Positions 23,370 through 48,947 of a stretch of 64,000 bases of DNA are shown here, in pieces. This stretch comes from a virus: the IMG/VR virus record IMGVR_UViG_3300021087_000857, positions 32,001 through 96,000 of that record, one strand, 5' to 3'. The translations under genes and the position numbers were made by a program. Within the stretch, counting starts at the first letter, position 1, and each line of letters opens with the position of its first letter. Below the pieces are notes generated by a model. That model made no database searches. It had not been told where the DNA came from and worked only from the letters and a program-made list of their open reading frames with translations.

Positions 23370-23666
23370 ATGCCAATAGAACGAAAAGACAGGTCTTTCG
23401 ATCTGATCTTTGACCAAGTATCTATGGATCATGTTCCAGCTGAATATATCAAGGAAGTTAGAGTAGATCTAGGTACAGGTGAAAGAATAACACTAACAAA
23501 AGAAGATTTGCAGATGATTAAAAACAAGTCTGCAGATGAAATTATTAAAGCATTAACAGTAGACTCAATGTCTAATATCAGTTTAAAGTTAGATTACACT
23601 GCTATTAAATCAGATGTTATGCGAGGTGTCTCGGGCTTTTTAGGAAAACACTTTGACGACAAGTAA
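23370..23666 (+). CDS. Hypothetical phage protein
   Basis: ORF in operon. Confidence 0.75.
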   Translation: MPIERKDRSFDLIFDQVSMDHVPAEYIKEVRVDLGTGERITLTKEDLQMIKNKSADEIIKALTVDSMSNISLKLDYTAIKSDVMRGVSGFLGKHFDDK

Positions 23667-24357
23667 CATATGGTTTTGTGGAATACCAGGAAGTAGGTGG
23701 AGCGGTATCGATATACAGATGCGTTCCATTTTACCCTGTGATCGCACAGACGAAACTCCAGAAAGAACACAATATCACAGAGCGTTTGATCCAAACGATG
23801 CTAATAATGGTCATCGTGGTAGCTATTGGGGTCCTGGCATGGGATGTGGTAAAGACTGGGTAGACTTTAATTTTTTAACAAAAAACAAATTGCAAGATGA
23901 TATTAATAATGTATTCTCTGGTACAGGATATAGAATAATTAAGAGTCATTTTTTTGCAAGAAAATTTAACTTAGACTTTATATGGAATAACTTTCCAGGT
24001 GATCGTATAGTGCTAATATATAGAGAGCCTCAAAAAAGTTTTGCGTGGTGGAGTGAAGTAATGGATATGGCACCAGAACATTATCCAGACTATAGACCAG
24101 GATATACTGACTATAACACCATGCGTGAATTACTATGGAAAGAGTCTGCAATTATAACAGACTTTGCCATACGTAAAGGATTAACATTCAAACCTTACAG
24201 TACACATGAATTTTCCTCTTGGAAAGGTTTTGACCATGCTAGTGCATTTCAAATAGACTTTGAAAAGATAAATAATACTAAGCACAAAGATGTTTTTATA
24301 ACATCGTGTCAAATACCAAATCAAAGGAATAATGTTCATGACTTTCCAAAATCTTAA
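23653..24357 (+). CDS. Sulfotransferase/P-loop-fold protein
   Basis: CGIPGSRWSG N-terminal loop, IIKSHF and VLIYREP resemble the sulfotransferase layout. Confidence 0.5.
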   Translation: MTTSNIWFCGIPGSRWSGIDIQMRSILPCDRTDETPERTQYHRAFDPNDANNGHRGSYWGPGMGCGKDWVDFNFLTKNKLQDDINNVFSGTGYRIIKSHFFARKFNLDFIWNNFPGDRIVLIYREPQKSFAWWSEVMDMAPEHYPDYRPGYTDYNTMRELLWKESAIITDFAIRKGLTFKPYSTHEFSSWKGFDHASAFQIDFEKINNTKHKDVFITSCQIPNQRNNVHDFPKS

Positions 24358-24432
24358 GAACATACAGTATATTGATAAAATTAATACTGAACGTTATCTT
24401 GCGATTGGACAAAATAAAATATAGAGAATAAT

Positions 24433-25860
24433 ATGTCAGATAGTAAATTACCAAGCGATACTTTTTGTATACTTCCGTGGATACATTTAAGTACTAGACC
24501 AGATGGAAGTATGAGAGTATGTTGTACTGCTAACGCATCAAGTGTAGGAGCAACAAATGATAAAGCACACGGTGGAAGAGTAGGTATTGTTAAAACAGAA
24601 GATGGCAAGCCTGCTAACCTAAACAACAGTGATCTTAACAGTAGTTGGAATAACAGCTATATGCGAAGTGTTAGACAAATGATGCTTAAAGGCGATAAGC
24701 CAGCAAGTTGTTTAAAATGCTACAAAGAAGAAGATGCAGGACACAGATCAAAGCGTCAATGGGAAACAGACTATTGGATGCGTGATGGTATTGATGTTGA
24801 CGAACTAGTAGCTCAAACATACGAAGATGGATCAACAGATAGTAAACTACGTTATATTGATATTCGTATGGGAACTAAATGTCAATTAGGTTGTGTTATG
24901 TGTAGCCCACATGATAGTTCAGGTTGGGTGAAAGACTGGAACAAGTTATATCCAAATATTACAAATGAATCTCTAAAAGAAACTATGAATTGGGATTCTA
25001 AAGGTAAAACGTTTGGTGCTAGTTATAATTGGCACAAAGACAATCCAGTATTTTGGGATCAGTTTTATGCACAAATTCCATACATTAGACAGTTATACTT
25101 TGCAGGCGGCGAAAGTACAGTTATTGAAGAACATTATAGTATTTTATCTAAAGTTATTGAAATGGGGTATGCACATCAAATTGAAGTACGTTATAATTCA
25201 AACGGAATTGAACTACCAGATAGACTATTAGAACTATGGACACATTTCCAAAAAGTACGTTTCCATTATAGTATTGACAGTATTGGTGTAATGAATGATT
25301 ATATTCGTTACCCAAGTGAATGGGACCATCAACTTAAAATGTTTGAACGTTTAGATAAAGAAACATCTAACAATGTAGAAGTTACAATTGCATGTGCCGT
25401 TAACGCTCTTAACATTCATTATATTCCAGACTTCCTTAAATGGAAACTTCAGGATAGCGGACTAAAGAAAACAAATATGTGGCCATTTGGTGCAGGCGGT
25501 ATTAACTATCACTTTGTATACTGGCCAGGACATTTGAATGTTAAAGTACTACCAGATGAATTCTTAGATAAGACTGAAGCTAAGTATGAAGAATTTATTG
25601 AATGGTGGAAAGAAAATTGGGAACTAGGTGTTCCAAGTTGGCATAAAGGTAAAGTAACCAAAGAACAATGGCTAGATGCGAGTTATGGAATTAAACGTTT
25701 ACGTGGTATGATTAGTTTTGCTCGCAGTGAAGATTGGAGTAGACGCTTACCAGAATTTAGAGAATATATTAATAAACTAGATGAGTTACGTGGAACTGAT
25801 TTCCGCAATACATTTCCAGAAATGGCATACTTACTAGATGAACCGGAGAATGATAAATGA
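24433..25860 (+). CDS. N-terminal twitch-domain radical SAM protein
   Basis: FCILPW..RVCC..CLKC, then CQLGCVMC, AGGES and SIDS. Confidence 0.92.
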   Translation: MSDSKLPSDTFCILPWIHLSTRPDGSMRVCCTANASSVGATNDKAHGGRVGIVKTEDGKPANLNNSDLNSSWNNSYMRSVRQMMLKGDKPASCLKCYKEEDAGHRSKRQWETDYWMRDGIDVDELVAQTYEDGSTDSKLRYIDIRMGTKCQLGCVMCSPHDSSGWVKDWNKLYPNITNESLKETMNWDSKGKTFGASYNWHKDNPVFWDQFYAQIPYIRQLYFAGGESTVIEEHYSILSKVIEMGYAHQIEVRYNSNGIELPDRLLELWTHFQKVRFHYSIDSIGVMNDYIRYPSEWDHQLKMFERLDKETSNNVEVTIACAVNALNIHYIPDFLKWKLQDSGLKKTNMWPFGAGGINYHFVYWPGHLNVKVLPDEFLDKTEAKYEEFIEWWKENWELGVPSWHKGKVTKEQWLDASYGIKRLRGMISFARSEDWSRRLPEFREYINKLDELRGTDFRNTFPEMAYLLDEPENDK

Positions 25861-26432
25861 AATATTTATTAGTCGCACTTGAAAATGAAGTGCCAAATAT
25901 CGATTTACCCGATGATTATACACTAATGATTACAGGTGTAGGTAAAGTAAATGCTACTGTAATGGCTACTATTGCCGCTAGACAACCAGACTGTGAATGT
26001 ATTATTAACTACGGAACAGCAGGAACTTTTAATCCTAAACTAGTTGGTAAACTACACAGAATTGGAATAGTAAAACAACGCGATATGGATGCAAGACCAC
26101 AAGCACCATTAGGAACTACTCCATACGAAGATACAAAATTCAGCAGTGATTTGCAACTTTATAAAGGAAGTAAATTTACATTAAGCACAGGCGATAACTT
26201 TGTAAAAGCCAACCCCGAAATGCAAAGTGACTTTGTAGACATGGAAGGGTATGCTATTGCAAAAGTGGCAGGTATGTTTAATAAGCCATGTATGATGTTA
26301 AAATATGCAAGCGACTTAGCTGACGATAAAGCACCAGAAGAATGGGAAAAGAATCAAGCCAAAGGCAAAGATATGTTCCTAAAATGGCTAGATGATTTAG
26401 AAAAGAATATCCAAGAAATAAACGATGAGTAA
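25857..26432 (+). CDS. mtnN: MTA/SAH (5'-deoxyadenosine) nucleosidase
   Basis: TGVGKVNA, INYGTAG, STGDNFV, VDMEGYAIA and KYASD. Confidence 0.88.
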   Translation: MKYLLVALENEVPNIDLPDDYTLMITGVGKVNATVMATIAARQPDCECIINYGTAGTFNPKLVGKLHRIGIVKQRDMDARPQAPLGTTPYEDTKFSSDLQLYKGSKFTLSTGDNFVKANPEMQSDFVDMEGYAIAKVAGMFNKPCMMLKYASDLADDKAPEEWEKNQAKGKDMFLKWLDDLEKNIQEINDE

Positions 26433-27684
26433 TTCGGGCTTTTGTGCATTACCATTTGTTCAATATAGTACTTACAACGGAGGACGTTTTAGACTTTGTT
26501 GTATGGCTAAAGAACCTAAAGAACTAGTCAATCAAGAAGAACTAGGAATTGATGGCACTTGGAATCACAATTATATAAAAGACGTAAGACGCAGAATGAC
26601 TGCTGGTGAGAAATTATCAGAGTGTATTGAATGTCATCATTTAGAACGTAACGGAATAATGAGCTCACGCCAATGGGAAAATAAAGTGTGGGCAGACGTA
26701 ATAGATGATGTAGTAGCAGACGCATCAGCTAATGATTGGGAGATTGACCAGCCTCTACAATTTGATTTTAGACTTGGTAACTTATGTAATTTGCAGTGTC
26801 AAATGTGCAACAAAGAAGCATCTCACTTAGTGAGTGTGGAAAGAGCCACAATGGTACAAAGCGGACTCGGAGCGAACCATCCTGATTGGGACGGCAATAT
26901 TGCAAACAAAAAACAAGCATTACTTCAACCTGGAATAGAGTGGGAGAGCTTTGAAAGAATGTTACCATATGCTCGCAAAATAAAACTAATAGGTGGCGAG
27001 CCTACAGTTGCTCAAGACATGTTTAAATTGTTAGACATTGCAACTGCAAGTGGTCATGCAGAACATATAGAATTAAGTTTTTATACAAACATCACTAACA
27101 TGCAAGATAAATGGTTAGACCAACTATCTAAGTTTGAGAAAGTGATTGTTAACTGTTCATTGGAAGGAATGGAAGATATGAATGATTATCTTAGGCCTCC
27201 AAGTAAGTGGGCAAGTGTATGGAAGAACTTTGATAAGTTAGTTAAGTTCTCAGATACAAAAGAAGGTAAACGTATAAAGGTACGAGTTACTACAGTAAAC
27301 CAAATAACCAATGCATTGCATACTGCTACATTTTGGAAGTTTATGCATGATTATCAGATGACTAGTAATAGAGGCATTGGTATGAGTACTAACCAATTAG
27401 TAGAGCCAGCATACTATAGTATGGCACATGCTCCTGAATGGTTGAAAGAAGAACAACGTGAACAGATTTTGGAATTTCTCAAAAGCATTGGCAACAGTCC
27501 ACATTTTGAGCAATACGAAGAACCTCTTATGGAACTTGTTAATTTTAGTTTGGATCCTGAGCATAAGTATGATGCTGACATCATGCGCCAGTATGTCAAG
27601 ATCACCGAAAACTACGACAGATTCAGAGGACACGACATTATTCAAGTGTCGCCCGAATTTAGAAGAATTAAAAGAGACCTCTGA
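26425..27684 (+). CDS. N-terminal twitch-domain radical SAM protein
   Basis: FCALPF..LCC..CIEC; CNLQCQMC; GGEP. Confidence 0.92.
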   Translation: MSNSGFCALPFVQYSTYNGGRFRLCCMAKEPKELVNQEELGIDGTWNHNYIKDVRRRMTAGEKLSECIECHHLERNGIMSSRQWENKVWADVIDDVVADASANDWEIDQPLQFDFRLGNLCNLQCQMCNKEASHLVSVERATMVQSGLGANHPDWDGNIANKKQALLQPGIEWESFERMLPYARKIKLIGGEPTVAQDMFKLLDIATASGHAEHIELSFYTNITNMQDKWLDQLSKFEKVIVNCSLEGMEDMNDYLRPPSKWASVWKNFDKLVKFSDTKEGKRIKVRVTTVNQITNALHTATFWKFMHDYQMTSNRGIGMSTNQLVEPAYYSMAHAPEWLKEEQREQILEFLKSIGNSPHFEQYEEPLMELVNFSLDPEHKYDADIMRQYVKITENYDRFRGHDIIQVSPEFRRIKRDL

Positions 27685-27738
27685 TTTAACTAAAGCAGAA
27701 ACCTATCATCGATGGGATTGTAAAGTAACTGTAGACTT

Positions 27739-28569
27739 TTAAAACTTTTTAATACGTTCTGCCATACATAGCTCAGGCTTGAGCAAACTTTCATTTAATA
27801 TATCAGCTTCAAAGCATTGTAACTTTGTGCCAAATACAATTTGGTGAGTAATCCATTGTGCATTAAAGAACCAAATATCACCTGGATCAAAAGTAATATA
27901 ATGTAATGGGTGGTGAAACTGATCCCATTTTTCTTCATTCCATACACATCTATCACGCATTCCAGTAATAAATGTATGTATGTTGTTTTTATCTAGTTCA
28001 CCTAAGTTAAACTTATCTTTGTACATGTTATACATTTGTTGTAAGTCTGGACCACACGATAATACTCTAGGACGCTTTTTATCTAATTGAACAAACATAC
28101 GTATCTGTTGTTCTAGTCCAGTGTGTTGTTCATCTAGTTCGTCCAAGTGTAGTTTATTTTCTACTAGTGTATTATATCTATGACTAAGCATACGTTCACT
28201 TGTTTTGTAATGTGGGAATAACATATCAAATACTTCGTTCCATCCATTGTTAGCTTGTTTGTGTTTTTGATGAAATACATTAATTTGCTCGTCATTCCAA
28301 CCACGTTCTATATGCATACGTGATCTATTTTTAATATGACTGTTATACCAAGGCATAATCCATTTGTTATCTTTAATAGTCCAGTCTGGTAAGTCGTCAT
28401 AGTAATCATAATCTAATTGTGGTATAGTTAGATTTTTAATAACCACCGGCCAGCCACTTTCAAATGCTTCGTATAGTTTAAAATTGTCTTTTAGGTCGTG
28501 TTTATTAGCGTCGAAAACATTGACAATGAAGTCGTTTCCTGCTATAATATCTTTAGCGATACGGGTCAT
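27739..28569 (-). CDS. Kdo hydroxylase (KdoO)-like Fe(II)/2OG dioxygenase
   Basis: KLHLD, IRMFVQLD..RPRV, FDPGDIWFF...THQI; start set at MTR after GGAG. Confidence 0.65.
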   Translation of the reverse strand: MTRIAKDIIAGNDFIVNVFDANKHDLKDNFKLYEAFESGWPVVIKNLTIPQLDYDYYDDLPDWTIKDNKWIMPWYNSHIKNRSRMHIERGWNDEQINVFHQKHKQANNGWNEVFDMLFPHYKTSERMLSHRYNTLVENKLHLDELDEQHTGLEQQIRMFVQLDKKRPRVLSCGPDLQQMYNMYKDKFNLGELDKNNIHTFITGMRDRCVWNEEKWDQFHHPLHYITFDPGDIWFFNAQWITHQIVFGTKLQCFEADILNESLLKPELCMAERIKKF

Positions 28570-28598
28570 GTTGTATAAAACTCCATTTGTGTGTATAG

Positions 28599-28618
28599 AT
28601 AAATACATATATATTTAT
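28599..28618. promoter_or_regulatory. Palindromic pair of late-type ATAAATA motifs between divergent genes
   Basis: ATAAATA (28599-28605), CATATA, TATTTAT (28612-28618). Confidence 0.45.
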
Positions 28619-28674: not shown

Positions 28675-29760
28675 ATGACAAAATCAGTTAATGTATGGAG
28701 CGAATTTCAGCCCCTAAAAAGAGTAGTGCTAGGAGCACCGTTTCCACCTGAAACATTTGATTGGCACGAGGACGAAGAAACACGCAATGTAATGCGTCAA
28801 ATCTTTAAAGAAACAGCCGAGGACATAGCAGTGCTGGAGGGAATATTAAAGGACAGAGGTATTGAAGTAGTACGTCCTAAAAATATATTTACAATCACAG
28901 GTGAAGAACAAATTAAATTACCATGGATGCATTGTGGGTTTCCTAACCACCCATTAATGCCACGTGATACACTTATGCCGTATGGCAATAGTATATTTGA
29001 ATGTTTTACAGGTAGCGATAATCGTTACTTTGAGAATCTCGCATATTACGATCATTGTAGTAAATGGTTTAGTGAAGGTGCAGATTGGGTTAGTATGCCA
29101 GGAGTATTAGTAGAAAGTGGTAAAAAATATGACCACTTTGTAGATAATCATCGACTGCTTTATCATGCGGCTAACATGATAAAGTGTGGACGCCACGTTT
29201 TGTTTAGCCAACCCTATGAGGGAGACAATAAACGAGGCAGAGGTACGGAGCTGGGCCGTGAATGGATTCGTAGAGAAATAAAACTACGTTATCCAGATAC
29301 AAAGTTTTTGGACATTCCAGTAGGAGGACATATCGATGGTAAAATAGCATTGCTAAAACCTGGTGTGCTAATGACCTGGAATGCAAATTGGGTTCCTAAA
29401 GAAATGGAAGGTTGGCACATTATTGAAGTAGATGATGATTTTGACATGCCAGAAGATTTCCAACAAACTCGTAAGAAAAGATTCCACAAAGAATATGTAA
29501 GCAAGTGGTTAGAGCATTGGGTAGGTTGTCCAGACGAAAGTGTGTTTGATGTTAACGTACTATCACTAGATGAAAAGACGGTAATTTGTACAGGTAAAAA
29601 TGAACAAGCATTTGCTGAAATGGAAGCACATGGCATTGAACCAATATACTGGAACTTTAGACATCAGTATTTTTGGGATGGTGGCATACATTGTTTAACA
29701 AGTGATATTGTTAGAGAAGGTGGGCAGGAAGATTATATAACTAACAAAAGGTACTATTAA
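28675..29760 (+). CDS. Amidinotransferase (glycine/inosamine-phosphate amidinotransferase family)
   Basis: VWSEFQPLKRVVLG, MPRD, GHIDGK, FDVNVLS and GGIHC. Confidence 0.9.
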   Translation: MTKSVNVWSEFQPLKRVVLGAPFPPETFDWHEDEETRNVMRQIFKETAEDIAVLEGILKDRGIEVVRPKNIFTITGEEQIKLPWMHCGFPNHPLMPRDTLMPYGNSIFECFTGSDNRYFENLAYYDHCSKWFSEGADWVSMPGVLVESGKKYDHFVDNHRLLYHAANMIKCGRHVLFSQPYEGDNKRGRGTELGREWIRREIKLRYPDTKFLDIPVGGHIDGKIALLKPGVLMTWNANWVPKEMEGWHIIEVDDDFDMPEDFQQTRKKRFHKEYVSKWLEHWVGCPDESVFDVNVLSLDEKTVICTGKNEQAFAEMEAHGIEPIYWNFRHQYFWDGGIHCLTSDIVREGGQEDYITNKRYY

Positions 29761-30809
29761 TGAGTTGGTACAAGAACCTACATAAATTACAACTTGACCC
29801 AACAAGTCATTGTAATGCAAGATGCGGTGCTTGTGCTAGAAATATATACGGTGGTGAAACTAGACACGACTTGGAATTAAAACATTTTGACTTAGAGTTA
29901 TGGAAAAGAATAGCAATCGAAGACACTAAAGAGTGCTACATAAATCATTTAAGTCTAAATGGAAATTGGGGCGATGCTTTAATGCACCCAGATATAATAG
30001 AAATAATTGAAATTTGGAATACATATCATCCAGAAAGTGAAATGGCAATAGCAACAAATGGAAGCCTACGTAGTACAGAGTTTTGGAAAAAGTTAGCCAA
30101 CGTACTAAGAAACACTCCTCGACATAGTCTTGAATTTTCAATGGATGGAATGGAAGATACACATCACATTTATAGAAGAAAAACATCACATTCAAAGTTA
30201 GTAGATAATATTAAAACTTTTGTAGATGCAGGTGGAACTGCAAACATATATATGACTTTATTCGAACACAACAAACACCAAATTAAAGAAGTAGCAAACT
30301 TATCTAAAGAATTAGGTGCTGATGGATTTTATATAAGGCATAGTCATCGTAGTAAGATGAAAATTATAGACGGTGAAGAACGATACGATATAGAAGGTTA
30401 TTTTCCAAAAATAATAAAAGGCTCTTTTACTTTTCCAAAAAATAAAAAAATAAATAGTGATGCAAGAGATAGTAAAATACACATACAAAATAATGAAAAA
30501 ATTAAACCAAATACAACAAGTAAATGTCCTTGGAAACAACAACACAAAGTACAAATTGATCCATGGGGAATAATATGGCCTTGTTGTTATGTAAGTAAGT
30601 ATGGTGGTGGTGGGTCAATGACAGGTTTTAATATGGACGAAATTTTTTCACCAGGCAATGATAATATTATTAATAATGTATTTGAACAAAATGATGTAAA
30701 CAAGTATACCTTAAAAGAAATATTAGAAAATAAATGGTTTAATACAACAGTAGATAATGCAATAGCAAAGTCTGAATGGAATATTTGCAATGAAACTTGC
30801 GGAATATAA
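29760..30809 (+). CDS. Radical SAM/SPASM protein
   Basis: CNARCGAC; C-terminal KCPW..WPCC..ICNETCG. Confidence 0.92.
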   Translation: MSWYKNLHKLQLDPTSHCNARCGACARNIYGGETRHDLELKHFDLELWKRIAIEDTKECYINHLSLNGNWGDALMHPDIIEIIEIWNTYHPESEMAIATNGSLRSTEFWKKLANVLRNTPRHSLEFSMDGMEDTHHIYRRKTSHSKLVDNIKTFVDAGGTANIYMTLFEHNKHQIKEVANLSKELGADGFYIRHSHRSKMKIIDGEERYDIEGYFPKIIKGSFTFPKNKKINSDARDSKIHIQNNEKIKPNTTSKCPWKQQHKVQIDPWGIIWPCCYVSKYGGGGSMTGFNMDEIFSPGNDNIINNVFEQNDVNKYTLKEILENKWFNTTVDNAIAKSEWNICNETCGI

Positions 30810-30818
30810 GGAATAACA

Positions 30819-31919
30819 ATGAATTGGTATAGACAGATACATAAATTACAAATAGATATAACAAGTCATTGTAATGCTAGATGTGGTGCTTGTATAAGAA
30901 ATATAAATGGAGGTGCAACTCATCCAGGTTTAAAACTAACCCATTTTGATGTAGATGTTTGGAAACGTATGGCTACCGAAGACACTAGAGGTTGGTGGGT
31001 TAGGCAGCTAACACTAAATGGAAATTGGGGCGATCCAATGATGCATCCTCATTTAGTAGAAATGTTAGAAATATGGATTACTGCTCACCCGGAAACTTTT
31101 ATATCTATTGCAACAAATGGAAGTATGCGTAGCACTAAGTTTTGGTCAGACCTTGCTACAATATTACGTAAAGGATCTCATCACAAAGTTGATTTTGCAG
31201 TAGATGGAATGGAAGACACGCATCATATATACAGACGAAAAACTGTGTTTTCTAAACTAAAAGAAAACATAAAAGCATTTACAGATGCAAAAGGACAAGC
31301 AATTGCAGTAATGACAATGTTTGAACATAACAAACATCAAATAGAAGAAGTAAAAGAATTGGCAAGAGAAGTAGGTTGCAAACACTTTATTGCAAGAAGA
31401 AGTCATAGTGATCATATGCTTATCGAAGACGGTGACGAACAATACGAAATAAAAGGTTGGTATCCAACTGGAAATGGCGAGCATGTAATTGATAACGATA
31501 CTCCGGAACTTGAACAAGACTTTCCCGAAAACGAACATCCACTAAGTGTAAATAGAGACAGAATATGGATGAGAGCTAATGAACGTTTTGAAGAATTAAA
31601 TGATAATCATATACCAAGTAAATGTCCTTGGAAAGATGAAGGGGAAGTACAAATAGACCCATGGGGTGTTGTATGGCCTTGTTGTCATGTAAGTTTATAT
31701 GGCGGTGCTGGAGCATCAGAAAATATGTCTATAAAATTAAACTTTAATGAAGAAGCTGAACAAACTAATTTTATCGAAGAAGGAAAAGAATCAAACAGTT
31801 TGCATAATAGATCGTTAAAAGATATATTAAATAATCAATGGTATAATGATACACTTAATCATGCTATAAAAAATGCAGATTATGATGTGTGCAGACGTAG
31901 TTGTGGGATATGTAAATAA
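30819..31919 (+). CDS. Radical SAM/SPASM protein, tandem paralog of 29760
   Basis: CNARCGAC, DGMEDTHHIYRRK and KCPW..WPCC..VCRRSCG. Confidence 0.92.
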   Translation: MNWYRQIHKLQIDITSHCNARCGACIRNINGGATHPGLKLTHFDVDVWKRMATEDTRGWWVRQLTLNGNWGDPMMHPHLVEMLEIWITAHPETFISIATNGSMRSTKFWSDLATILRKGSHHKVDFAVDGMEDTHHIYRRKTVFSKLKENIKAFTDAKGQAIAVMTMFEHNKHQIEEVKELAREVGCKHFIARRSHSDHMLIEDGDEQYEIKGWYPTGNGEHVIDNDTPELEQDFPENEHPLSVNRDRIWMRANERFEELNDNHIPSKCPWKDEGEVQIDPWGVVWPCCHVSLYGGAGASENMSIKLNFNEEAEQTNFIEEGKESNSLHNRSLKDILNNQWYNDTLNHAIKNADYDVCRRSCGICK

Positions 31920-36606: not shown

Positions 36607-36891
36607 ATGATTAAAGTTTTCTTTATAGCAAAAATGAAATCACCAATGCCAAGTGAGTATTTACAGATGAGTAAAAAGATGAGAGAACTAGCAGAAGCTC
36701 ATCCTGGCTTTATAGATATTACTAGTGAAGAACATGGTGACATTGAGATTACTATTAGTAGTTGGCGTAGTAAAGAAGATGTAATGGATTGGGCCAATAA
36801 CCCAGAACATATGAAAGCAAAACAAAGATCAAAGGAATGGTACGAATGGGTACGAGGAATACATGTAGAGGCAGTAGATGAAAAAAGGTGA
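36607..36891 (+). CDS. Antibiotic biosynthesis monooxygenase (ABM) domain protein
   Basis: HPGF...ITISSWRS...W..NPEH..A. Confidence 0.8.
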   Translation: MIKVFFIAKMKSPMPSEYLQMSKKMRELAEAHPGFIDITSEEHGDIEITISSWRSKEDVMDWANNPEHMKAKQRSKEWYEWVRGIHVEAVDEKR

Positions 36892-41280: not shown

Positions 41281-41303
41281 AATAAATATTAATAAGGAAA
41301 ATA

Positions 41304-42521
41304 ATGACTAAAAAATTACCAAGCGATACATTTTGTGTATTACCATTTATGCACGCCGCAGTTAACCCTGGCGGTGGCTTTCGTGTTTGTTGTAACAGTA
41401 ACCCTGCTAACAACAAAGTATTAAAAGACGATGGCAGTGGCAAAGCATATAGAATATTCAAAGATGATATCAATGATGTATGGAACAGTGAATGGTATAA
41501 AAACATTCGCAAAGAGTTTATAGACGGAGAGCGTCCAGAAACATGTCAAAGATGTTTCCGTGAAGAAGATGCAGGTATACGTAGCCCACGCATAGGTTAC
41601 AATGAGAAGTGGTATAAAGACAATGTAAAAGTAGCAGAAGAAATACCATTGGATATTCGTTATGTAGACTTGCGTTTAGGTAACTTGTGCAACTTAAAAT
41701 GTAGAATGTGTAACCCATGGAGTAGTAGCATGTGGGTTAAAGACTGGAATAAAGTAACTGGACTTGCAGAGCTTACACCCAATGAGCCACTAAACAGTGA
41801 CGAACTAGACTTTATGGAAATTATGAAAGTATGGCCGGACCGTAAACAAACTGGATTAAACTTTGTAGAAATAGCACATACAATTGAAGAGATTTACTTA
41901 ACAGGTGGTGAGCCTACACTTGCAACTAGTCAATATGCATTATTTGATTACTGTATTGAAAATGAACTAGCAGGTAATATTAAACTAAAGTACAACACTA
42001 ACCTTACAAATATCCCACAAAAGATGATTGATTACTGGAGTCACTTTAAAGGTGTGCAACTTAATTGTAGTATTGATGCAACTGGTGATAGAGATAGATA
42101 TGTTAGGTATCCAAGTAGCTGGGGTAAAATAGTAGAAACATTTGATAAACTATTAGCACTACCTAATGTGTACATTCAGGTGCATTGCACAGTACAAGTA
42201 TTAAATATGTGTGCTATGAGTGAACTGTTTGATTGGACACGAAGCAAAGGTATTCCTGACAAAGACATATATTTAAATATTCTTAATCACCCAGAAATGT
42301 ATAACATACGTTCTCTACCTAAAGAACTAAAACAGCTCGCCGAGCAAAACTTACAACCTTATTTAGACATACCAAAAGTAGCAGACTGTATCAAGTATAT
42401 GTGGTCCGAAGATTGGTACGAAAAGCGTTGGAAAGAGTTTGTAGACTTTAACACAAAAACAGATGATTTACAAAAAGGTAACTTGTTAGATGTATGTCCG
42501 GAGTTTACTAATTATGTATAA
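41304..42521 (+). CDS. N-terminal twitch-domain radical SAM protein
   Basis: FCVLPF..RVCC..CQRC; CNLKCRMC; TGGEP; ATAAATA upstream. Confidence 0.92.
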   Translation: MTKKLPSDTFCVLPFMHAAVNPGGGFRVCCNSNPANNKVLKDDGSGKAYRIFKDDINDVWNSEWYKNIRKEFIDGERPETCQRCFREEDAGIRSPRIGYNEKWYKDNVKVAEEIPLDIRYVDLRLGNLCNLKCRMCNPWSSSMWVKDWNKVTGLAELTPNEPLNSDELDFMEIMKVWPDRKQTGLNFVEIAHTIEEIYLTGGEPTLATSQYALFDYCIENELAGNIKLKYNTNLTNIPQKMIDYWSHFKGVQLNCSIDATGDRDRYVRYPSSWGKIVETFDKLLALPNVYIQVHCTVQVLNMCAMSELFDWTRSKGIPDKDIYLNILNHPEMYNIRSLPKELKQLAEQNLQPYLDIPKVADCIKYMWSEDWYEKRWKEFVDFNTKTDDLQKGNLLDVCPEFTNYV

Positions 42522-43080
42522 GATATTATGTACAGGAAATCCAGAGTTTGGAGTAGCAAGTGCTATAGCAGAACGCTGGCCTGATACAACATTTGTTAAT
42601 AGAACAGATTGGGGCTACGATTTAACGCAAAATGGCTATAAAACTAAGTTAGCCGAAAAGGCTCTTAATTATGACGTCTTTATTAACTGTAGTGCATTAT
42701 GGCAGTACCATCAAACTTTGCTACTAGATGTAGTCTATAAGAACGCCTTAAAGAACCTTAAACGACTGCATATAGTGTCGTTGGGCAGTACAACAGACAG
42801 AGCTACCAAAGGTAGCGATTGGCATTATCAACAAGAAAAGAAGGCTTTGCGTAGTACAAGCAACGCATTAGGGTTAAAAAGCATTTGGGCTGGTGGACCT
42901 AAAGTAAGTTATGTTACATTCGGTACATTAGAAAACAATGCACACAAGCATCCAGGCAGAGCAGTAATGCAGTTAAATGATGCAGTAGACATGATTGAGT
43001 ATGTAATTAATATGCCATATCATTTAAATGTAAATGAACTAAGTATAGACCCTATACAGACGGATTGGCCAAATGAATAA
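42514..43080 (+). CDS. Short-chain dehydrogenase/reductase-like protein
   Basis: ILCTGNPEFGVASAI, DVFINCS, SLGS and YQQEK (YxxxK). Confidence 0.75.
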   Translation: MYKILCTGNPEFGVASAIAERWPDTTFVNRTDWGYDLTQNGYKTKLAEKALNYDVFINCSALWQYHQTLLLDVVYKNALKNLKRLHIVSLGSTTDRATKGSDWHYQQEKKALRSTSNALGLKSIWAGGPKVSYVTFGTLENNAHKHPGRAVMQLNDAVDMIEYVINMPYHLNVNELSIDPIQTDWPNE

Positions 43081-44245
43081 ATTTTGCTACATGCCTTGGC
43101 ATGCAATTACGCTAAGTGCAAATGGTGACATTAAGCCTTGTTGTCAGTTTAGTAACAAAGGGCGTATGCCTAATACTGAACATGACACTATTATGGAAAA
43201 CTTTAATAGTGAGCGTATGCAAGACTTACGCAAAGACTTTTTAAAAGGTGTACAACCTAGTGCTTGCAACAGTTGTTGGGAGAGAGAAGATTTAGTAGGG
43301 CAAAGTAGACGCTTATGGTTTAATAAGAAGTTTATGAAATTTAATGCAGATTTTATAAACGGCAACCACCCTACAACATATGATGTTCCTAACCCTAAGT
43401 TCTATCAAGCAGACATTAACTTATCAAATGTATGTAACTTAAAATGTCGTATGTGTGGAAGTTGGGCAAGCAATAGTTGGTTTGACGAAGAATTAGCACT
43501 TGCTAAAATAGACAAACGCTACGAGAAAAATAGTAATCCTATTCCATTGCAACAATATGGATTAGAAGATTTACGCAATATGCTACCGCATCTAAAAGAT
43601 GTAAAACGCATAGACTTTAAAGGTGGTGAGCCCATGATGGCAAAACATCACAATCAATTCCTACAATGGCTCATTGAAGAAGGTATGACTGATGTAGAAT
43701 TATTTTATACAACAAACGGCACAGTTGTTAATCCTAAAATATTAAACTTGCTAAAACAGTTTAAACATGTTAGTATATGTTTTAGTATAGAAGGCACAGG
43801 AGAGCTATATAGATACATCAGAGGTGGCAAATATCAATTAGAAGATTTTGAAAAAACACTAGCAATGTACAATGAATTAGAAAATGTAAAAATTATGTTC
43901 AATGTAACACTGCAAAATTATAACGTTTTCAACTTGCCAGAATTGCATTTCTTCCTTCACGAAATGGAAGATAAATATAGTAAAGTAAGTGCAAACAGTA
44001 GTTTCACTACTATCTGTAACAAACCAGCATATTTAAGTCCAATGAACTTACCAGATGATTTACGAGATCAAGCAATTAAAAACTTATCTCTGTTTGATGA
44101 TTTTGACAAGCTAGTAGAGAGTATGAAGACTAGAACATTTAATCCTGAGCTATGGGAAACATTTATTAACTTTACAAATGACTTAGATAAAATGCGAGGC
44201 GACAGTGTAAGGGATGCAGTGCCTCAACTAAAGGAATATTTTTAA
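43073..44245 (+). CDS. N-terminal twitch-domain radical SAM protein
   Basis: FCYMPW..KPCC..CNSC; CNLKCRMC; GGEP. Confidence 0.92.
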   Translation: MNKFCYMPWHAITLSANGDIKPCCQFSNKGRMPNTEHDTIMENFNSERMQDLRKDFLKGVQPSACNSCWEREDLVGQSRRLWFNKKFMKFNADFINGNHPTTYDVPNPKFYQADINLSNVCNLKCRMCGSWASNSWFDEELALAKIDKRYEKNSNPIPLQQYGLEDLRNMLPHLKDVKRIDFKGGEPMMAKHHNQFLQWLIEEGMTDVELFYTTNGTVVNPKILNLLKQFKHVSICFSIEGTGELYRYIRGGKYQLEDFEKTLAMYNELENVKIMFNVTLQNYNVFNLPELHFFLHEMEDKYSKVSANSSFTTICNKPAYLSPMNLPDDLRDQAIKNLSLFDDFDKLVESMKTRTFNPELWETFINFTNDLDKMRGDSVRDAVPQLKEYF

Positions 44246-44961
44246 TGCTAGTAGCTTTAGAAGACAATCACGCACCAAAAGACGAACTACTTAGAGTAGA
44301 ATGGAACTTGGGTAAGCGTTGCAACTACAACTGTAGTTATTGTGGAAATGAATTACACAATAAGACTAGCGACCATATGAGTTGGGAAGTATACACTGCT
44401 ACAATAGATAAAATAGTAGAAGCATCAAATGGTAAAAAGATTAAAATTAGTTTTACAGGTGGTGAGCCATTTGTACACCCACAGTTTATTGACATGTTAA
44501 AATATGCTAAAGAGAACGGCGTATACAGATGTAGTGTAACAACCAACGGAAGTCCTCCACCTAAGATATACAAAAAAGCATTGCCGTATTTACATTATGT
44601 TATTATAAGTTATCACTTTGAATTTGCATATCATGAGAAAGTAATTAATAACATTACAGGTATGTGGGCAGACATACAGGAATATAGAGCTAAAGATGAC
44701 TACAAAGGAATGCATGTACATATTATGGCGTTGCCTGGACACATGGATAAATGGAAAGAAATTATAAACGAATTAAAAGAGTGTGGCGTTGAATATACAG
44801 TTCGTAAAATTAGGCCACGTGTTAATGAAAACCGTACAGGTTGGAATAAACCATATGCTGACGGTATGTTAGGGCAACATCCTATACATGAAGAAACTGA
44901 AAAGTTTGCTGGACAATATTATAGTGTAGAAGAAGAAAAATGGTTAACTGAAAATGTATGA
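44245..44961 (+). CDS. Radical SAM core lacking its SPASM domain
   Basis: VEWNLGKRCNYNCSYC, TGGEP, TTNGS and SYHFE; resembles the N-terminal part of 47778. Confidence 0.9.
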   Translation: MLVALEDNHAPKDELLRVEWNLGKRCNYNCSYCGNELHNKTSDHMSWEVYTATIDKIVEASNGKKIKISFTGGEPFVHPQFIDMLKYAKENGVYRCSVTTNGSPPPKIYKKALPYLHYVIISYHFEFAYHEKVINNITGMWADIQEYRAKDDYKGMHVHIMALPGHMDKWKEIINELKECGVEYTVRKIRPRVNENRTGWNKPYADGMLGQHPIHEETEKFAGQYYSVEEEKWLTENV

Positions 44962-46144
44962 AGATAAAGTAAGAGAGTGGTTAATGCAACCCGGTAATAA
45001 CTTTTGTGCGTTGCCATTTACACATATGGCAATAGAAGCCAACGGCGATATAAGACCTTGTTGTATGGGCGATGAATTTGATTTAAACATTAGAAATAAA
45101 ACAATACAACAAGTATACAACGACCCAAAAAGACTACAATTTGTAGACAGTTTTAGACGAAACGAACAAAATCCTGCATGTCATAAATGTTGGAAAGATC
45201 CAGAAATAAGAGCTAATTTTTCAACATCACCTCATGCCAGAGAAATAACAAAACAAGCAATGGACGGAATAACACCTAAGCATGAATTAAAATGGTTAGA
45301 AATTAAACCAGGAAATAGATGTAATTTAAAATGTAGAATATGTGGAGTACATAATAGTAGTAGTTGGACAAAAGATACTGCGGCAATAGAAGAGCCCAAA
45401 GTAAAGTATAAAAACAGCGAAGCATTTAAATATACGCAATCATGTGATTGGATAGATGATCCAGAATTTTGGAATGATCTAAATCAACTAGAATCAATAG
45501 AGTATTTGCATTTTATGGGCGGCGAACCTTTTATGGTTCCTGAGCACTTTCAATTAATAGAACGTTTAGTAAACGATCCTAACATTGATACTAGTAATAT
45601 TACAATCGGATACAATACAAATGGAACATACTTTCCTAGCAAAGAAAACTTTGAGCTATACAATAATTTTAAGCAAGTAAACTTTGCATTAAGTATAGAT
45701 GATATTGATGAGAGATTTAACTACCAGCGTAAATTAGCTAATTGGGAAGAAGTAAAAAGTAATATTAAGAATTTTCAAAAATTAAATAAAGACCAATATT
45801 TTGTACATTTGGATCCTACTATAAGTATATATAATATATTTTATTTAAATGAAATCACTAAAACATTTAATGATTTAGGATATCATAATTTTATTAAACA
45901 ACGACATTTTGTAAATAATGGGTATAACGCAATTCACATATTACCACAACATATAAAAAGTGTTATTGTAGAAAAGTACAAAGACACTGATAACATATGG
46001 ATTAAGCGAGCAGTAGATTATATGAATAGTCAACCAACAGATAATAACTTATGGGAAATATTTAAAAAGAATACTACTAGATTAGATTCATTAAGAAGCG
46101 AAAACTTTCAAAACACATTTAAGGAATTTTATGAGCACTTTTAA
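44954..46144 (+). CDS. N-terminal twitch-domain radical SAM protein nested between core and SPASM genes
   Basis: FCALPF..RPCC..CHKC; CNLKCRIC; GGEP. Confidence 0.92.
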   Translation: MYEDKVREWLMQPGNNFCALPFTHMAIEANGDIRPCCMGDEFDLNIRNKTIQQVYNDPKRLQFVDSFRRNEQNPACHKCWKDPEIRANFSTSPHAREITKQAMDGITPKHELKWLEIKPGNRCNLKCRICGVHNSSSWTKDTAAIEEPKVKYKNSEAFKYTQSCDWIDDPEFWNDLNQLESIEYLHFMGGEPFMVPEHFQLIERLVNDPNIDTSNITIGYNTNGTYFPSKENFELYNNFKQVNFALSIDDIDERFNYQRKLANWEEVKSNIKNFQKLNKDQYFVHLDPTISIYNIFYLNEITKTFNDLGYHNFIKQRHFVNNGYNAIHILPQHIKSVIVEKYKDTDNIWIKRAVDYMNSQPTDNNLWEIFKKNTTRLDSLRSENFQNTFKEFYEHF

Positions 46145-46457
46145 AAACATTATTGTACACTATGAAGATGGTACAAGCGAAGAAGATAACGTAAACAGTG
46201 TTATGGCACGTGATGAAAATGATTTTCGTGGATGGGAATGTTGGGCTGGTGTACAAAATATTACTATAAGTAACACAGGTGATGTGTATAGAGCTATATG
46301 TAAAGTGGGTGGCAAACTAGGAAACATTTATGATGGGTTTGAAATGCCTAAAGAAACTATTATATGTAATAAGCCAAGATGTGTATGTGCTGCTGATGTA
46401 CAGTTATCAAAAGCACTACCAGAACATGTGCATAAATTAAGGGTAGGAAATGAATAA
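46131..46457 (+). CDS. Stand-alone SPASM domain
   Basis: FRGWECWAG...AICK..LGNI...ICNKPRCVCAAD; matches the C-terminus of 47778. Confidence 0.85.
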   Translation: MSTFKNIIVHYEDGTSEEDNVNSVMARDENDFRGWECWAGVQNITISNTGDVYRAICKVGGKLGNIYDGFEMPKETIICNKPRCVCAADVQLSKALPEHVHKLRVGNE

Positions 46458-47778
46458 AGAATTTTGGAACAGTGATAAAACAAATAAGTATGAAGCTTTT
46501 TATGAACATGCAGTAGATAAACTAAAAGGTCTAGATGTAAACATACATACTTTTTGCCCATTGCCTTTTACTCATGTAAGTACTATGCCACATGGAGAAA
46601 TAAAGTTATGTTGTAGAGCACAACCACCTCAACATGGACCTAACCCAAATGTTAAAGACAAAGATTTTAATCTCAAAGAATACTGGCAAAGTGAATACAT
46701 GAACGAAGTACGTGATGATCTTATATTAGGTAAAAAGCACTTCCAATGTAAAAATTGTTGGAAAATGGAAGACAATGAAATTGTTAGTTTACGTATGAAT
46801 AGGCTTATGGATCTTATGGATAATGAGATCTATAGAAAGAATATAGAATATTATATAAGACATAGAGAAATAGAATTTAAAATTCCACTCATTGAACTTA
46901 AATTAAGTAACGTATGTAACTTTAAGTGCAGAATGTGTTGGCCAAAAGACAGTTCAAAATGGGTTACTGATTGGGATAAAGTAAAAGAGTTTTACAGTGT
47001 GGGTGATAAACGTTATATAGAAGAAATAGTAGACAGCAATGATTTACGTAAAACTCGTGTAATGAATTTATATGAAAAGGACGAAGAATTTGTAGGGAAC
47101 CTAATTGAGCTTATGGAACACGTAGAAGAACTTGAATTTGCAGGTGGCGAGCCTCTTATGGACCCAATTCATTATCGTGTACTAGACAGTATTCCGCACC
47201 CAGAAAATGTTACATTAAAATATAGTACAAATTTAAGTATTATGAAAATGGGTAAACATAGCGTAATTGACTTGTGGAAGAAATTTAAAAAAATTAAATT
47301 AACAGTTAGTATAGACGGACACCGAGAACTTAATCATATGATTCGTAGAGGATCTGATTGGGATTTATTAAAAAGCAATATTGAACTAGTTAAAAGAGAA
47401 CTTGATAACTTAGATGTTATTAAAGGAACTACTTGTATAAGTGGTATGAATGCTGCGGAATTAGGCGAAACAGCGGAAGCAATTGTATTTGAACTAGGCA
47501 TACACTGGCATACAAGCCGTGTACAATGGCCTGATTTCCTACATGCAAATGTATTAAGCCCAGAGCAACTACAAACAGGAATAGACGGCTTAAAACGGGT
47601 ATTTGATAGCTTAAACACGCCAGAAAGATGCGAAACTCCTAGGCGTACTATGTTTGAAACACATTTAAATGGTGCTATTAGTTGGTTAGAAACATGTATA
47701 AAAGATAATAAACATACAGAAAAATACGAAGCATTTAGTAAATTTAATGAAACAATAACAGATATGGATAAAGAATAA
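46450..47778 (+). CDS. N-terminal twitch-domain radical SAM protein
   Basis: FCPLPF..LCC..CKNC; CNFKCRMC; AGGEP. Confidence 0.92.
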   Translation: MNKEFWNSDKTNKYEAFYEHAVDKLKGLDVNIHTFCPLPFTHVSTMPHGEIKLCCRAQPPQHGPNPNVKDKDFNLKEYWQSEYMNEVRDDLILGKKHFQCKNCWKMEDNEIVSLRMNRLMDLMDNEIYRKNIEYYIRHREIEFKIPLIELKLSNVCNFKCRMCWPKDSSKWVTDWDKVKEFYSVGDKRYIEEIVDSNDLRKTRVMNLYEKDEEFVGNLIELMEHVEELEFAGGEPLMDPIHYRVLDSIPHPENVTLKYSTNLSIMKMGKHSVIDLWKKFKKIKLTVSIDGHRELNHMIRRGSDWDLLKSNIELVKRELDNLDVIKGTTCISGMNAAELGETAEAIVFELGIHWHTSRVQWPDFLHANVLSPEQLQTGIDGLKRVFDSLNTPERCETPRRTMFETHLNGAISWLETCIKDNKHTEKYEAFSKFNETITDMDKE

Positions 47779-48947
47779 TGAGTGATAAAGATTTAAAATG
47801 GAGTGAATACGACTTTACAAAAACACCGTATGAAGATATAGTTCGAGTAGGACAACGTACTATGTTATACAGAGATATGTTTACAGTAAGTTGGTTGCTA
47901 GGTAGATTTTGTAACTACAATTGTAGTTATTGTTGGCCTTATGCTAGAAGTAATAGAAAAGATCACAGACCTACAGAACTTAACTTAAAAACAATCGATG
48001 AGATTAAACGTCAGGCACGTGAGCGTGGCTTTAATAGTTTCCACTTTAGTTTAAGTGGAGGTGAACCTACGTTCCATCCAGGCTATTTAGATATGTTAAA
48101 ACATTTAAGTGATGATTGTCATAACACCAATTATACAAGTGTACATATGACAAGTAACTGTAGTCGTAACATGAAATGGTTTAAAACTTATGTGGACTAT
48201 GCTTCAAAGTTTCATAGAGCTAGTATTACTTGTAGTTTACATGTTGAGCATGTTGACACAACTGAGAAGATGCAGGATCTTGCAGACAAACTTATACTAT
48301 GCCAAGAACACGATGTACAAGTAACTATTAACATGGTTATGGTTCCTGAAGTTTTTGATCAATATTATGATAATGCATTGTTTTTCCATAATCAAGGAAT
48401 TAATGTTACACTTAAACCTCAATCAGACCCAACTGCAAGTAGAGTAGTTGATGGTTATACAGAGGAAATGAAAAAGAAATTACACAATGGTATGCCACAA
48501 CGTGGATACACAGAAGCAAAAGCAAAACAAAAGAAGTTAGTAACTAGACCAGACCCAGCATTTAAAGTAGACATAGAAGATGAATATAGAAAACAGACCG
48601 CAGCAGTTCCGTGGCATATGCAAGTAGAATTCAGAGATAGCAAAGGTGATCCTTATTACATGGATCAAGCAGAACGCTTTAATGCATTTGACTTTAACAA
48701 GTTCAAAGGTTGGGAATGTAGTAGTGGATACCGCAGTATAATTATACGTGAACCAGATGGTTCTATTAAACGTAGTTATAGTTGTGGAGATCAACCGTTG
48801 GGTAATATTGAAACAGGATTTAAGTTATTTGACGGTCCTGAAATATGTACTACCAATGCTTGTGTAAGTAGTGCTGATAGTAAAATTCCAAAACGTGCAC
48901 CAGGAACAAAAATGCCTCTATTTCCTGGTGATGAAACTTTTAAATAA
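47778..48947 (+). CDS. Radical SAM protein with C-terminal SPASM-like domain
   Basis: VSWLLGRFCNYNCSYC, SGGEP and FKGWECSSG...SC...ICTTNAC. Confidence 0.92.
   Translation: MSDKDLKWSEYDFTKTPYEDIVRVGQRTMLYRDMFTVSWLLGRFCNYNCSYCWPYARSNRKDHRPTELNLKTIDEIKRQARERGFNSFHFSLSGGEPTFHPGYLDMLKHLSDDCHNTNYTSVHMTSNCSRNMKWFKTYVDYASKFHRASITCSLHVEHVDTTEKMQDLADKLILCQEHDVQVTINMVMVPEVFDQYYDNALFFHNQGINVTLKPQSDPTASRVVDGYTEEMKKKLHNGMPQRGYTEAKAKQKKLVTRPDPAFKVDIEDEYRKQTAAVPWHMQVEFRDSKGDPYYMDQAERFNAFDFNKFKGWECSSGYRSIIIREPDGSIKRSYSCGDQPLGNIETGFKLFDGPEICTTNACVSSADSKIPKRAPGTKMPLFPGDETFK

Follow-up and report, generated by a model that had tools for sequence, protein, structure and literature searches.

A radical SAM gene array in a marine T4-like jumbo phage: a candidate glycan-tailoring island

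Introduction

Radical S-adenosylmethionine (SAM) enzymes (rSAMs) carry out chemistry that is otherwise hard to achieve. The T4-like Campylobacter phages CP220 and CPt10 contain 11–12 rSAM genes per genome, of unexplained function (Timms et al. 2010, PMC2853527), and the cyanophage S-SCSM2R contains a one-rSAM version, a set of pyridoxal phosphate (PLP) enzyme, rSAM and amidinotransferase (PMC12801897). Here we analyze a block of 14 rSAM genes and their partners in a 64-kb window of viral DNA, which comprises bases 32001–96000 of one 110,270-bp contig (IMG/VR record IMGVR_UViG_3300021087_000857). An earlier sequence-only reading of the window proposed that the block is a phage-borne line for the multi-step decoration of a glycan, virion protein, host envelope or nucleic acid. 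We found the array to be intact and conserved, and it looks like such a tailoring line. With about even confidence, we read it as an auxiliary island for biosynthesis, carried by a marine T4-like jumbo phage, that tailors a glycan and includes an oxidize–transaminate–amidinate route.

The CP220 module resembles the block in organization only. In both, several rSAMs are contiguous with an amidinotransferase and can be exchanged among close relatives; the CP220 module has five, beside a "glycine amidinotransferase" and two genes of the glycosyltransferase A (GT-A) fold. Identity is about 24% for the amidinotransferase and about 25% for the SPASM-type rSAMs. The CP220 module lacks rSAMs with an N-terminal twitch domain (N-twitch rSAMs), whereas the block has 14 rSAMs in a phage that also contains Fe-S, ferredoxin, MetK and nucleosidase genes.

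The sequence-only reading described the N-twitch rSAMs as lacking an assigned function. Our literature searches likewise found no paper on their function, although the family is catalogued, as NF033640. Searches on rSAMs in jumbo phages and on N-twitch arrays turned up no published account of arrays of this kind. NF033640 has 1–5 copies in cultured KVP40-like Vibrio phages and in RsoM2USA, compared with 10–18 here and in relatives. The isolated Vibrio phage K566 (L037, 255 kb) has four N-twitch-like rSAM genes in a row (161548–168284), with a gene annotated as PagP-like (lipid A acylation) and NAMPT a few kb downstream of the cluster, and is a possible bench model.

A single abundant marine phage lineage contains 10–18 diverged members per contig of a family without an assigned reaction, and also brings its own genes for supplying SAM, Fe-S clusters and electrons. 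The presence of the same core in culturable Bdellovibrio, and of small versions in culturable Vibrio phages, makes the enzymology directly testable. An answer would explain a phage feature that has been unexplained since the CP220/CPt10 genomes of 2010. Should the product prove to be a glycan of the virion or of a surface, it would also bear on how ocean phages recognize hosts and on superinfection.

Results

The rSAM genes of the block

The window contains, between 24433 and 48947, 14 intact open reading frames (ORFs, named here by their lower coordinate) with the CxxxCxxC motif, the number given in the sequence-only reading. All match the rSAM core domain PF04055 (E 3e-17 to 3e-6), and motif and core-domain match together predict that all 14 are rSAM proteins. 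ORF 24433 scores 28.1 bits against PF04055, 1.4 bits under the gathering cut-off of 29.5, and 418 bits against NF033640.

NF033640 (NCBIfam N_Twi_rSAM, twitch domain-containing radical SAM protein) covers the whole protein and has a curated cut-off of 170 bits. It is passed by ten block genes (180–418 bits: 24433, 26425, 31919, 34060, 35195, 40309, 41304, 43073, 44954 and 46450), which bears out the earlier count of ten rSAMs with an N-terminal twitch Fe-S domain. The contig contains 19 rSAM genes in total, 13 of them N-twitch, and the three N-twitch genes outside the block score 195–347 bits. Three more rSAMs had been placed elsewhere in the window; we found two, a QueE-like gene (3546–4178) and an N-twitch gene (60438–61631), and three further rSAM genes upstream of the window on the same contig.

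As in NF033640, the auxiliary-cluster domain of these ten proteins precedes the core. A C-x17-CC...CxxC pattern is present ahead of the core in nine of them. In the tenth, ORF 31919, the CC pair is absent, 3 of the Cys are kept, and PF13186 matches at 2.5e-9; PF13186 matches lie at residues 5–104 in seven of the ten. The sugar/cyclitol dehydrogenase BtrN has an auxiliary-cluster twitch domain that is matched by positions 7–76 of the NF033640 profile (E 6e-6). The similarity is confined to this domain, which is N-terminal in the block proteins and C-terminal in BtrN, and the cores are not orthologous. The rSAM paralogs of the block are 17–32% identical among themselves.

Among the other four rSAMs, the C-terminal SPASM domain assigned by the sequence-only reading was found in ORF 30819. 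ORF 29760 shows the same C-terminal Cys pattern, and its NCBIfam matches are ScmF/NirJ/MoaA-like, every one under cut-off. ORF 47778 has a Cys-bearing C-terminal domain without a Pfam match and represents the third rSAM type of the block; a PDB sequence search with it returned nothing usable. ORFs 44245 and 46131 align to residues 30–230 and 285–386, respectively, of 44 unsplit ORFs, 47778 included, and are therefore two halves of one split 47778-type gene. The detached C-terminal domain noticed earlier was thus recovered as ORF 46131, without the SPASM label. All close relatives have the same split, and the gene is unsplit in Bdellovibrionota.

Two related arrangements were seen elsewhere. 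In a Bacteriovoracaceae metagenome-assembled genome (MAG; L073:5780–7809), two ORFs have a 46131-like domain ahead of a 44245-like core, and the 47778 type therefore exists also in permuted, N-terminal order. In G001, a relative of the window (the record of L008 and L014), two NF033640 matches lie in one 916-aa frame (G001:C1:19460–22159), as if a pair of N-twitch rSAM modules had been fused.

Peptide maturation is the best-known role of SPASM/twitch rSAMs, and weak NCBIfam matches to SkfB, AlbA, PapB and anSME were obtained. The block rSAMs could accordingly modify a ribosomal peptide, or else proteins of the virion, by cross-linking, epimerization or hydroxylation. PF05118, matched by ORF 39582, includes protein Asp/Asn hydroxylases, the top Foldseek match of ORF 36878 is a Mimivirus collagen glucosyltransferase, and a fiber-like Peptidase_S74 protein adjoins the Bdellovibrio locus described below. 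However, all of the peptide-maturase matches are far under the family cut-offs, Pfam scans of the block genes found no PqqD/RRE-type domain, protease or transporter, and the small ORFs 23370 and 48948 have no Cys and no conserved core, and are poorly conserved or unremarkable. We consider peptide or protein modification quite improbable. A maturation system for peptides that are made on the ribosome and modified after translation was set aside, with no precursor peptide, no PqqD/RRE match, and maturase matches far below cut-off.

The locus and its conservation

The contig has a CheckV completeness of 32%, and represents roughly one third of the genome of a T4-like jumbo phage. It ends in a truncated family-B DNA polymerase, with nearest relatives in Atu_ph07 and the 350-kb Yersinia and Erwinia jumbo phages (45–49% identity). 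Phage genes flanking the block include the family-B DNA polymerase, a clamp loader and a CobS-like ATPase, and the contig also encodes an exonuclease and Prs. G+C content stays at 32–38% throughout, with skews matching the strand. Synteny of the block extends to at least 10 IMG/VR contigs (up to 205 kb), with proteins 75–98% identical, and window positions 40000–49000 recur in near-identical form in 14 DNA runs from marine or seawater samples, which have 14 study codes (76–99% of the words sampled). Because of this synteny and these runs, we conclude that the block belongs to a real, widespread, uncultured marine jumbo phage and is no chimera. A megablast search with the block as query found no match among 50,697 phage records, a collection that contains no isolate of the lineage.

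The sequence-only reading had named a chimeric or cellular contig, or paralogs that are mostly pseudogenes, as findings that would overturn it. The gene set is partly common to bacterial chromosomes and the contig is incomplete, as would be expected of a chimeric or cellular contig or of a graveyard of decaying paralogs. The phage flanks, the syntenic viral contigs and the 14 DNA runs contradict the former, and stop-free ORFs with a ratio of non-synonymous to synonymous substitutions (dN/dS) of 0.04–0.38 contradict the latter. We regard an artefact as having a negligible probability.

Orthologs, defined by at least 50% identity, and dN/dS were compared for 26 cluster genes across three relatives. 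Orthologs of 24 of the 26 genes (up to 98% identity), and of 13 of the 14 rSAM genes (50–98%), were present in at least one relative. ORF 40309 had none in any of the three, and those of 29760 and 36607 were found only in G001. The dN/dS values were mostly about 0.1, indicating purifying selection on every gene tested. The rSAMs are therefore old, specialized and constrained, with divergent paralogs yet conserved orthologs.

Comparison of cluster content in related phage contigs, a check proposed with the sequence-only reading, showed a conserved array, whose differences are replacements or insertions in gene slots (23653, 25857, 29760/30819, 36607, 38164, 40309 and 44954). The description of the cluster as diversifying thus applies to the slots and not to the ortholog sequences, all of which are under purifying selection. 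A phage–host arms race may be the driver, as was suggested. G001 has two extra N-twitch genes compared with the window, and the N-twitch counts in related contigs are 18, 13, 11, 11 and 4. Around the amidinotransferase, the loci form a graded series, with three rSAMs and a PLP gene in L012, 10–11 rSAMs in L027–L034 (a distant clade, counted in 21-kb loci), 14 in the window and 16 in G001. The rSAM-then-PLP dyad (31919/33162) recurs in L029, in L012 and in cellular loci, and the PLP gene adjoins an rSAM in distant phage clades and in five of six cellular loci. At the small end of the series, the close relative L035 (9106–12114; amidinotransferase 79% identical) has at this place just one SPASM rSAM beside the amidinotransferase and a KdoO-like gene, and is a candidate minimal module.

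Tailoring partner genes

The sequence-only reading listed an amidinotransferase, MtnN, ABM protein, PLP enzyme, SDR, two iron/2-oxoglutarate (Fe/2OG) hydroxylases and a sulfotransferase-like protein. The amidinotransferase, the 5′-methylthioadenosine/S-adenosylhomocysteine (MTA/SAH) nucleosidase-like protein, the ABM-like protein and the PF05118 oxygenase were confirmed. The PLP enzyme, the SDR-like protein and the second oxygenase (27739) gave weak evidence and are probable assignments, as are two GT-A-like and methyltransferase-like paralogs described below.

For ORF 28675, PDB matches over residues 19–355 are HsvA (8.8e-24), SxtG (2.9e-18), StrB1 (3e-17) and AGAT (about 1e-14); the match to Pfam PF02274 reaches only E 0.036. 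Its GGIHC motif (Cys340) aligns with GGFHC of all four solved enzymes, and GHID (His219) with their HID/HVD. The alignments confirm the predicted amidinotransferase of the pentein fold, with the catalytic Cys/His motifs kept. ORF 25857 is 191 aa long, compared with about 230 aa for typical nucleosidases, and is 54–81% identical in relatives; its 20 best PDB matches are all MTA/SAH nucleosidases (best 2.7e-9).

ORF 27739 has no Pfam match even at E 10, and a PDB sequence search gave nothing usable. Among its named Atlas language-model neighbors, 22 of 30 are PF11004 (Kdo hydroxylase; score 0.96). H154-x-D156, H255 and K262 are invariant in 12 orthologs, with assignment to the iron site made by pattern and not by alignment with a solved KdoO. 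The AlphaFold2 (AF2) model is poor (predicted local distance difference test, pLDDT, 55) and unfit for a fold search. A PDB sequence search with the PLP-enzyme-like ORF 33162 gave nothing usable, and the SDR-like ORF 42490 has no Pfam match. ORF 23653 carries the motifs behind its sulfotransferase-like label, but had no match in Pfam or PDB searches, and is missing from several relatives.

The twitch rSAMs, PLP enzyme, amidinotransferase, SDR-like protein and oxygenases together recall the oxidize–transaminate–amidinate logic of butirosin (BtrN) and streptomycin (StrB1), with an amidinotransferase of the StrB1 superfamily. This raises the alternative that the block makes a free small molecule, an aminoglycoside-, aminocyclitol- or guanidino-type metabolite acting on the host, competitors or host defense signaling. 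The best PDB relatives of 28675 (HsvA, SxtG and StrB1) are all small-molecule enzymes, and the authors of the S-SCSM2R study interpret its small gene set in this way (PMC12801897). Against it, Pfam scans of the block found no inositol-phosphate or 2-deoxy-scyllo-inosose (DOI) synthase, exporter or self-resistance gene, the BtrN likeness is limited to the twitch domain, and the cellular context rich in glycosyltransferase family 2 (GT2) genes points to polymer assembly. A small-molecule product is, in our judgment, unlikely. A streptidine/butirosin-type pathway in particular was set aside, as no DOI or myo-inositol-phosphate synthase family of Pfam is present in the block to form the scaffold, the BtrN likeness is twitch-only, and the closest solved relative of 28675 is HsvA and not StrB1.

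ORFs 36878 and 38164, the two unknown paralogs of the sequence-only reading, are indeed related (24% identity, E 5e-13). The 36878 family comprises 91 homologs, almost only from viral or metagenomic DNA, and has no Pfam family; a PDB sequence search gave nothing usable. The AF2 model (pLDDT 87) shows two domains. Residues 14–200 align with many GT-A chains over 131–163 residues (Z 8.6–9.8, a middling and common value; root-mean-square deviation 3.1–4.1), and Foldseek gives GT-A-like matches with a probability of 0.9–0.98. The C-terminal domain is class-I-methyltransferase-like (Z 8.6–11.9), with conserved GxG and acidic motifs. In alignment A2, the N-terminal domain shows no DxD motif in any column that is invariant or nearly so; the conserved stretch there is WFDGCWP.

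Bdellovibrionota relatives

Genes of the 24433 type, 56–64% identical, are present in about 30 Bdellovibrionota genomes, among them closed MAG chromosomes and that of a cultured predator, Bdellovibrio sp. HCB2-146. Of five genomes checked, four Bdellovibrionota have 4–12 N-twitch genes each and one Bacteroidota isolate has 1. The sequence-only reading overstates the case in saying that bacterial pathways normally use only one or a few rSAMs, given the 11–12 rSAMs of CP220/CPt10 and the runs of about 10, and up to 10, rSAM genes in Bdellovibrionota chromosomes. Literature searches on rSAMs in Bdellovibrio found no paper on such islands.

The chromosomal islands share with the phage block the 24433 type, the 47778 type (up to 65%), rSAMs of the SPASM type and the PLP enzyme, and some loci also share the amidinotransferase (45%), SDR-like and PF05118-like genes. 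Unlike the phage block, the islands of HCB2-146 and Bacteriovoracaceae OZ242254.1 contain canonical GT2 genes; the phage block in turn adds the nucleosidase, the KdoO-like gene and the 36878 family. The island of HCB2-146 (L059, G006:C1 about 1858000–1895000) spans about 37 kb, with six N-twitch and four other rSAM-like genes and five GT2 genes, followed by a 1355-aa Peptidase_S74 fiber-like protein. Five of the 11 PF00535 (GT2) genes of this genome lie within 9 kb of the 24433 ortholog, and GT-A families account for six of the ten non-rSAM neighbors scanned. In a tree, the phage 24433 sequences form one clade nested among Bdellovibrionota rows, with an unsure root and some "cellular" rows that may be phage.

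Transcription and 7-deazaguanine genes

All block genes are on the plus strand except 27739–28608, and most starts overlap or abut the preceding stop, so the gene coordinates agree with the nearly co-directional, start/stop-coupled block described earlier. Perfect TTGACA-N16-18-TATAAT sites number seven in the window (0.2 expected), at 8688, 14426, 17405, 22025, 28520 and 37028 (+) and 49929–49957 (−), all co-oriented with the local genes. The block contains no copy of the late promoter motif of T4 type, TATAAATA, which is also under-represented in the window (4 versus 13.5 expected). These sigma-70-type promoters and the lack of the late motif in the block suggest early transcription by the host polymerase. 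Rfam and tRNA scans found nothing.

Early promoters of the host sigma-70 type are also expected of DNA-modification genes, and the contig encodes FolE, QueD and a QueE-like rSAM. The array might therefore elaborate a phage DNA base, for instance a 7-deazaguanine or hydroxymethyl-pyrimidine side chain bearing amino, guanidino or sugar groups, to evade restriction and CRISPR. The DNA of CP220, the only cultured phage with an analogous module, is fully substituted with 2′-deoxy-7-amido-7-deazaguanosine (dADG), and its phage-encoded pathway is written as stopping at 7-carboxy-7-deazaguanine (CDG) (PMC10516641); rSAM and PLP enzymes are reported to act in thymidine hypermodification (PMC8989533). 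On the other side, Pfam scans of the block found neither a transglycosylase nor a base kinase, and no domain that binds DNA or has the DNA glycosylase fold, the nearest cellular orthologs stand among glycosyltransferases in bacterial chromosomes, and the rSAM/amidinotransferase module of CP220/CPt10 can be exchanged between phages with a nucleotide identity of 96% or more (PMC2853527). We give DNA hypermodification a low, though not trivial, probability.

The 7-deazaguanine genes QueE-like, QueD and FolE lie at window positions 3546–4178 and 6301–6747 and at L002:8814–9512; from these predicted genes, the phage pathway would run at least to CDG. CP220 likewise combines a gene set of this kind with its rSAM/amidinotransferase module.

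A proposed glycan-tailoring line

Among the targets named by the sequence-only reading, the evidence favors a glycan, because of the GT2-rich cellular loci, the GT-A-like folds of the paralogs and the Kdo-hydroxylase-like partner. By analogy, the two GT-A genes of the CP220 module may also indicate a glycan context for the block. We propose that the block builds or edits an unusual sugar decoration, on a glycan or a sugar-bearing molecule, with the virion or the infected cell envelope as a possible target.

Each rSAM would use its CxxxCxxC-bound [4Fe-4S] cluster and SAM to form a 5′-deoxyadenosyl radical, which would remove one H from a sugar carbon. The extra cluster of the twitch domain would accept an electron, as in BtrN, giving keto, epimerized or deoxygenated positions. 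In the proposed sub-route, 31919 would make a ketone, the coupled PLP enzyme 33162 would convert it to an amine, and 28675 (Cys340, His219) would convert the amine to a guanidine, consuming arginine. The two Fe/2OG oxygenases would add hydroxyls, and the GT-A-like/methyltransferase-like paralogs would transfer or methylate. The nucleosidase would clear inhibitory 5′-deoxyadenosine; MetK, the phosphoribosyltransferase (PRTase) and Prs would resupply SAM precursors; and the NifU, IscA-like and SufT-like proteins would load the clusters, with electrons from ferredoxin. A conserved core (24433, 47778, amidinotransferase and PLP enzyme) would be extended by swappable rSAM slots.

A more specific proposal, which we put forward tentatively, is a modular "radical glycan-editing" line, in which at least ten N-twitch rSAMs each perform a different C-H functionalization of one sugar scaffold, the fixed core makes a guanidino-amino sugar, and the swappable slots vary the virion or cell-surface decoration. 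If true, it would be the largest rSAM pathway known, and would give NF033640 its first assigned reactions.

Several observations weigh against glycan tailoring. The block contains no sugar-activating nucleotidyltransferase, polyprenyl-phosphate transferase, flippase or polymerase, and no scaffold-forming or export gene is visible in it. The GT-A-like call comes from a structural match with a middling Z and no DxD, and the PLP, SDR and KdoO-like calls are all under curated thresholds. An ad hoc GT2 profile found no canonical GT2 on the phage contig, and GT2-like neighbors in only 11 of 68 cellular loci; the missing matches mean little, because the profile was built from 5 seeds and has low sensitivity. 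Three of the "cellular" rows (L038, L039 and L062) may represent DNA of phages that was binned into MAGs. A nucleic-acid target keeps some weight, because the phage carries 7-deazaguanine genes. Contigs from RNA libraries of four runs cover the block, X15 having short identical pieces and X16 pieces of 6–7 kb from a relative; they are no proof of expression, because contigs show neither strand nor level and DNA carry-over is possible.

Supply genes and other features

The features of the block and its supply genes are listed in Table 1. The supply set (IscA-like, NifU-like, SufT-like, ferredoxin, PRTase, MetK and Prs) lies at 58439–62903 (−), 7694–8791 (+) and 54353–55318 (−). From established rSAM biochemistry, this set and the nucleosidase would together supply SAM, remove by-products, salvage adenine, load clusters and provide for reduction.

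Table 1. Predicted features of the rSAM block and of related genes in the window
Feature	Coordinates	Strand	Evidence and remarks
SAM synthetase MetK	7694..8791	+	Three S-AdoMet_synt domains
Perfect sigma-70-type promoter TTGACA-17-TATAAT	22025..22053	+	Ahead of block
Sulfotransferase-like by motif only, 234 aa	23653..24357	+	GxPGSRWSG and KSH motifs
N-twitch rSAM 1	24433..25860	+	NF033640 418 bits; most conserved; 56–64% identical to Bdellovibrionota genes
MTA/SAH (5′-deoxyadenosine) nucleosidase-like, 191 aa	25857..26432	+	PF01048 5.6e-14 (52.6 bits); variable slot
N-twitch rSAM 2	26425..27684	+	CxxxCxxC, PF04055, NF033640
KdoO-like Fe/2OG oxygenase candidate	27739..28608	−	Sole minus-strand gene of block
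Perfect sigma-70-type promoter, extended -10	28520..28548	+	Ahead of amidinotransferase
Amidinotransferase	28675..29760	+	HsvA 8.8e-24; anchor gene of module in all relatives
rSAM, Cys-rich SPASM-like C-terminal domain	29760..30809	+	PF04055 4.3e-11; variable slot
rSAM with C-terminal SPASM	30819..31919	+	PF04055 and PF13186; variable slot; 47–72% identity in relatives
N-twitch rSAM 3	31919..33169	+	NF033640; start/stop-coupled to PLP gene 33162
PLP-enzyme-like (fold-type-I-like)	33162..34067	+	PF00155 E 0.0017, sub-cut-off; STTK lysine motif
N-twitch rSAM 4	34060..35202	+	CxxxCxxC, PF04055, NF033640
N-twitch rSAM 5	35195..36433	+	CxxxCxxC, PF04055, NF033640
DUF3291/ABM-like small protein	36607..36891	+	PF11695 4.8e-8; variable slot
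Virus-restricted two-domain protein: GT-A-like N-domain, class-I methyltransferase-like C-domain	36878..38164	+	
Paralog of 36878	38164..39585	+	24% identity, E 5e-13; variable slot
Asp/Arg-hydroxylase-type Fe/2OG oxygenase (Pfam of LpxO family)	39582..40331	+	PF05118 5.1e-10
N-twitch rSAM 6, short (323 aa)	40309..41280	+	NF033640; variable slot
N-twitch rSAM 7	41304..42521	+	NF033640; >2000 metagenomic homologs
SDR-like Rossmann protein	42490..43080	+	TGxxxxG, YxxxK motifs; PDB 2nwq E 0.0066
N-twitch rSAM 8	43073..44245	+	NF033640 321 bits
rSAM core only, N-terminal half of split 47778-type gene	44245..44961	+	PF04055 3e-17
N-twitch rSAM 9, between halves of split gene	44954..46144	+	NF033640; variable slot
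108-aa Cys-rich (five Cys) detached C-terminal domain of split 47778-type gene	46131..46457	+	
N-twitch rSAM 10	46450..47778	+	PF04055, NF033640
"47778 type" rSAM, second conserved core gene	47778..48947	+	PF04055 2e-13; at most 65% identical to Bdellovibrionota genes
Fe-S/electron run: IscA-like, purine-type PRTase, NifU-like, 7Fe-type ferredoxin, SufT-like	58439..62903	−	Pfam
13th N-twitch rSAM, inside Fe-S supply run	60438..61631	−	NF033640

Other genes were also observed. On the minus strand are a ClpP-like protease (55784–56425), a match to the NTPase domain of DNA polymerase III alpha (57216–57722, a 168-aa fragment-like ORF), MazG (58031–58438) and an M17 leucyl-aminopeptidase-like gene (62905–63987). 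In L001, the phage encodes a NodU/Nol-like carbamoyltransferase (126–1643) and a membrane subunit of a TctA-family tricarboxylate transporter (6444–7886; PF01970 5.6e-97).

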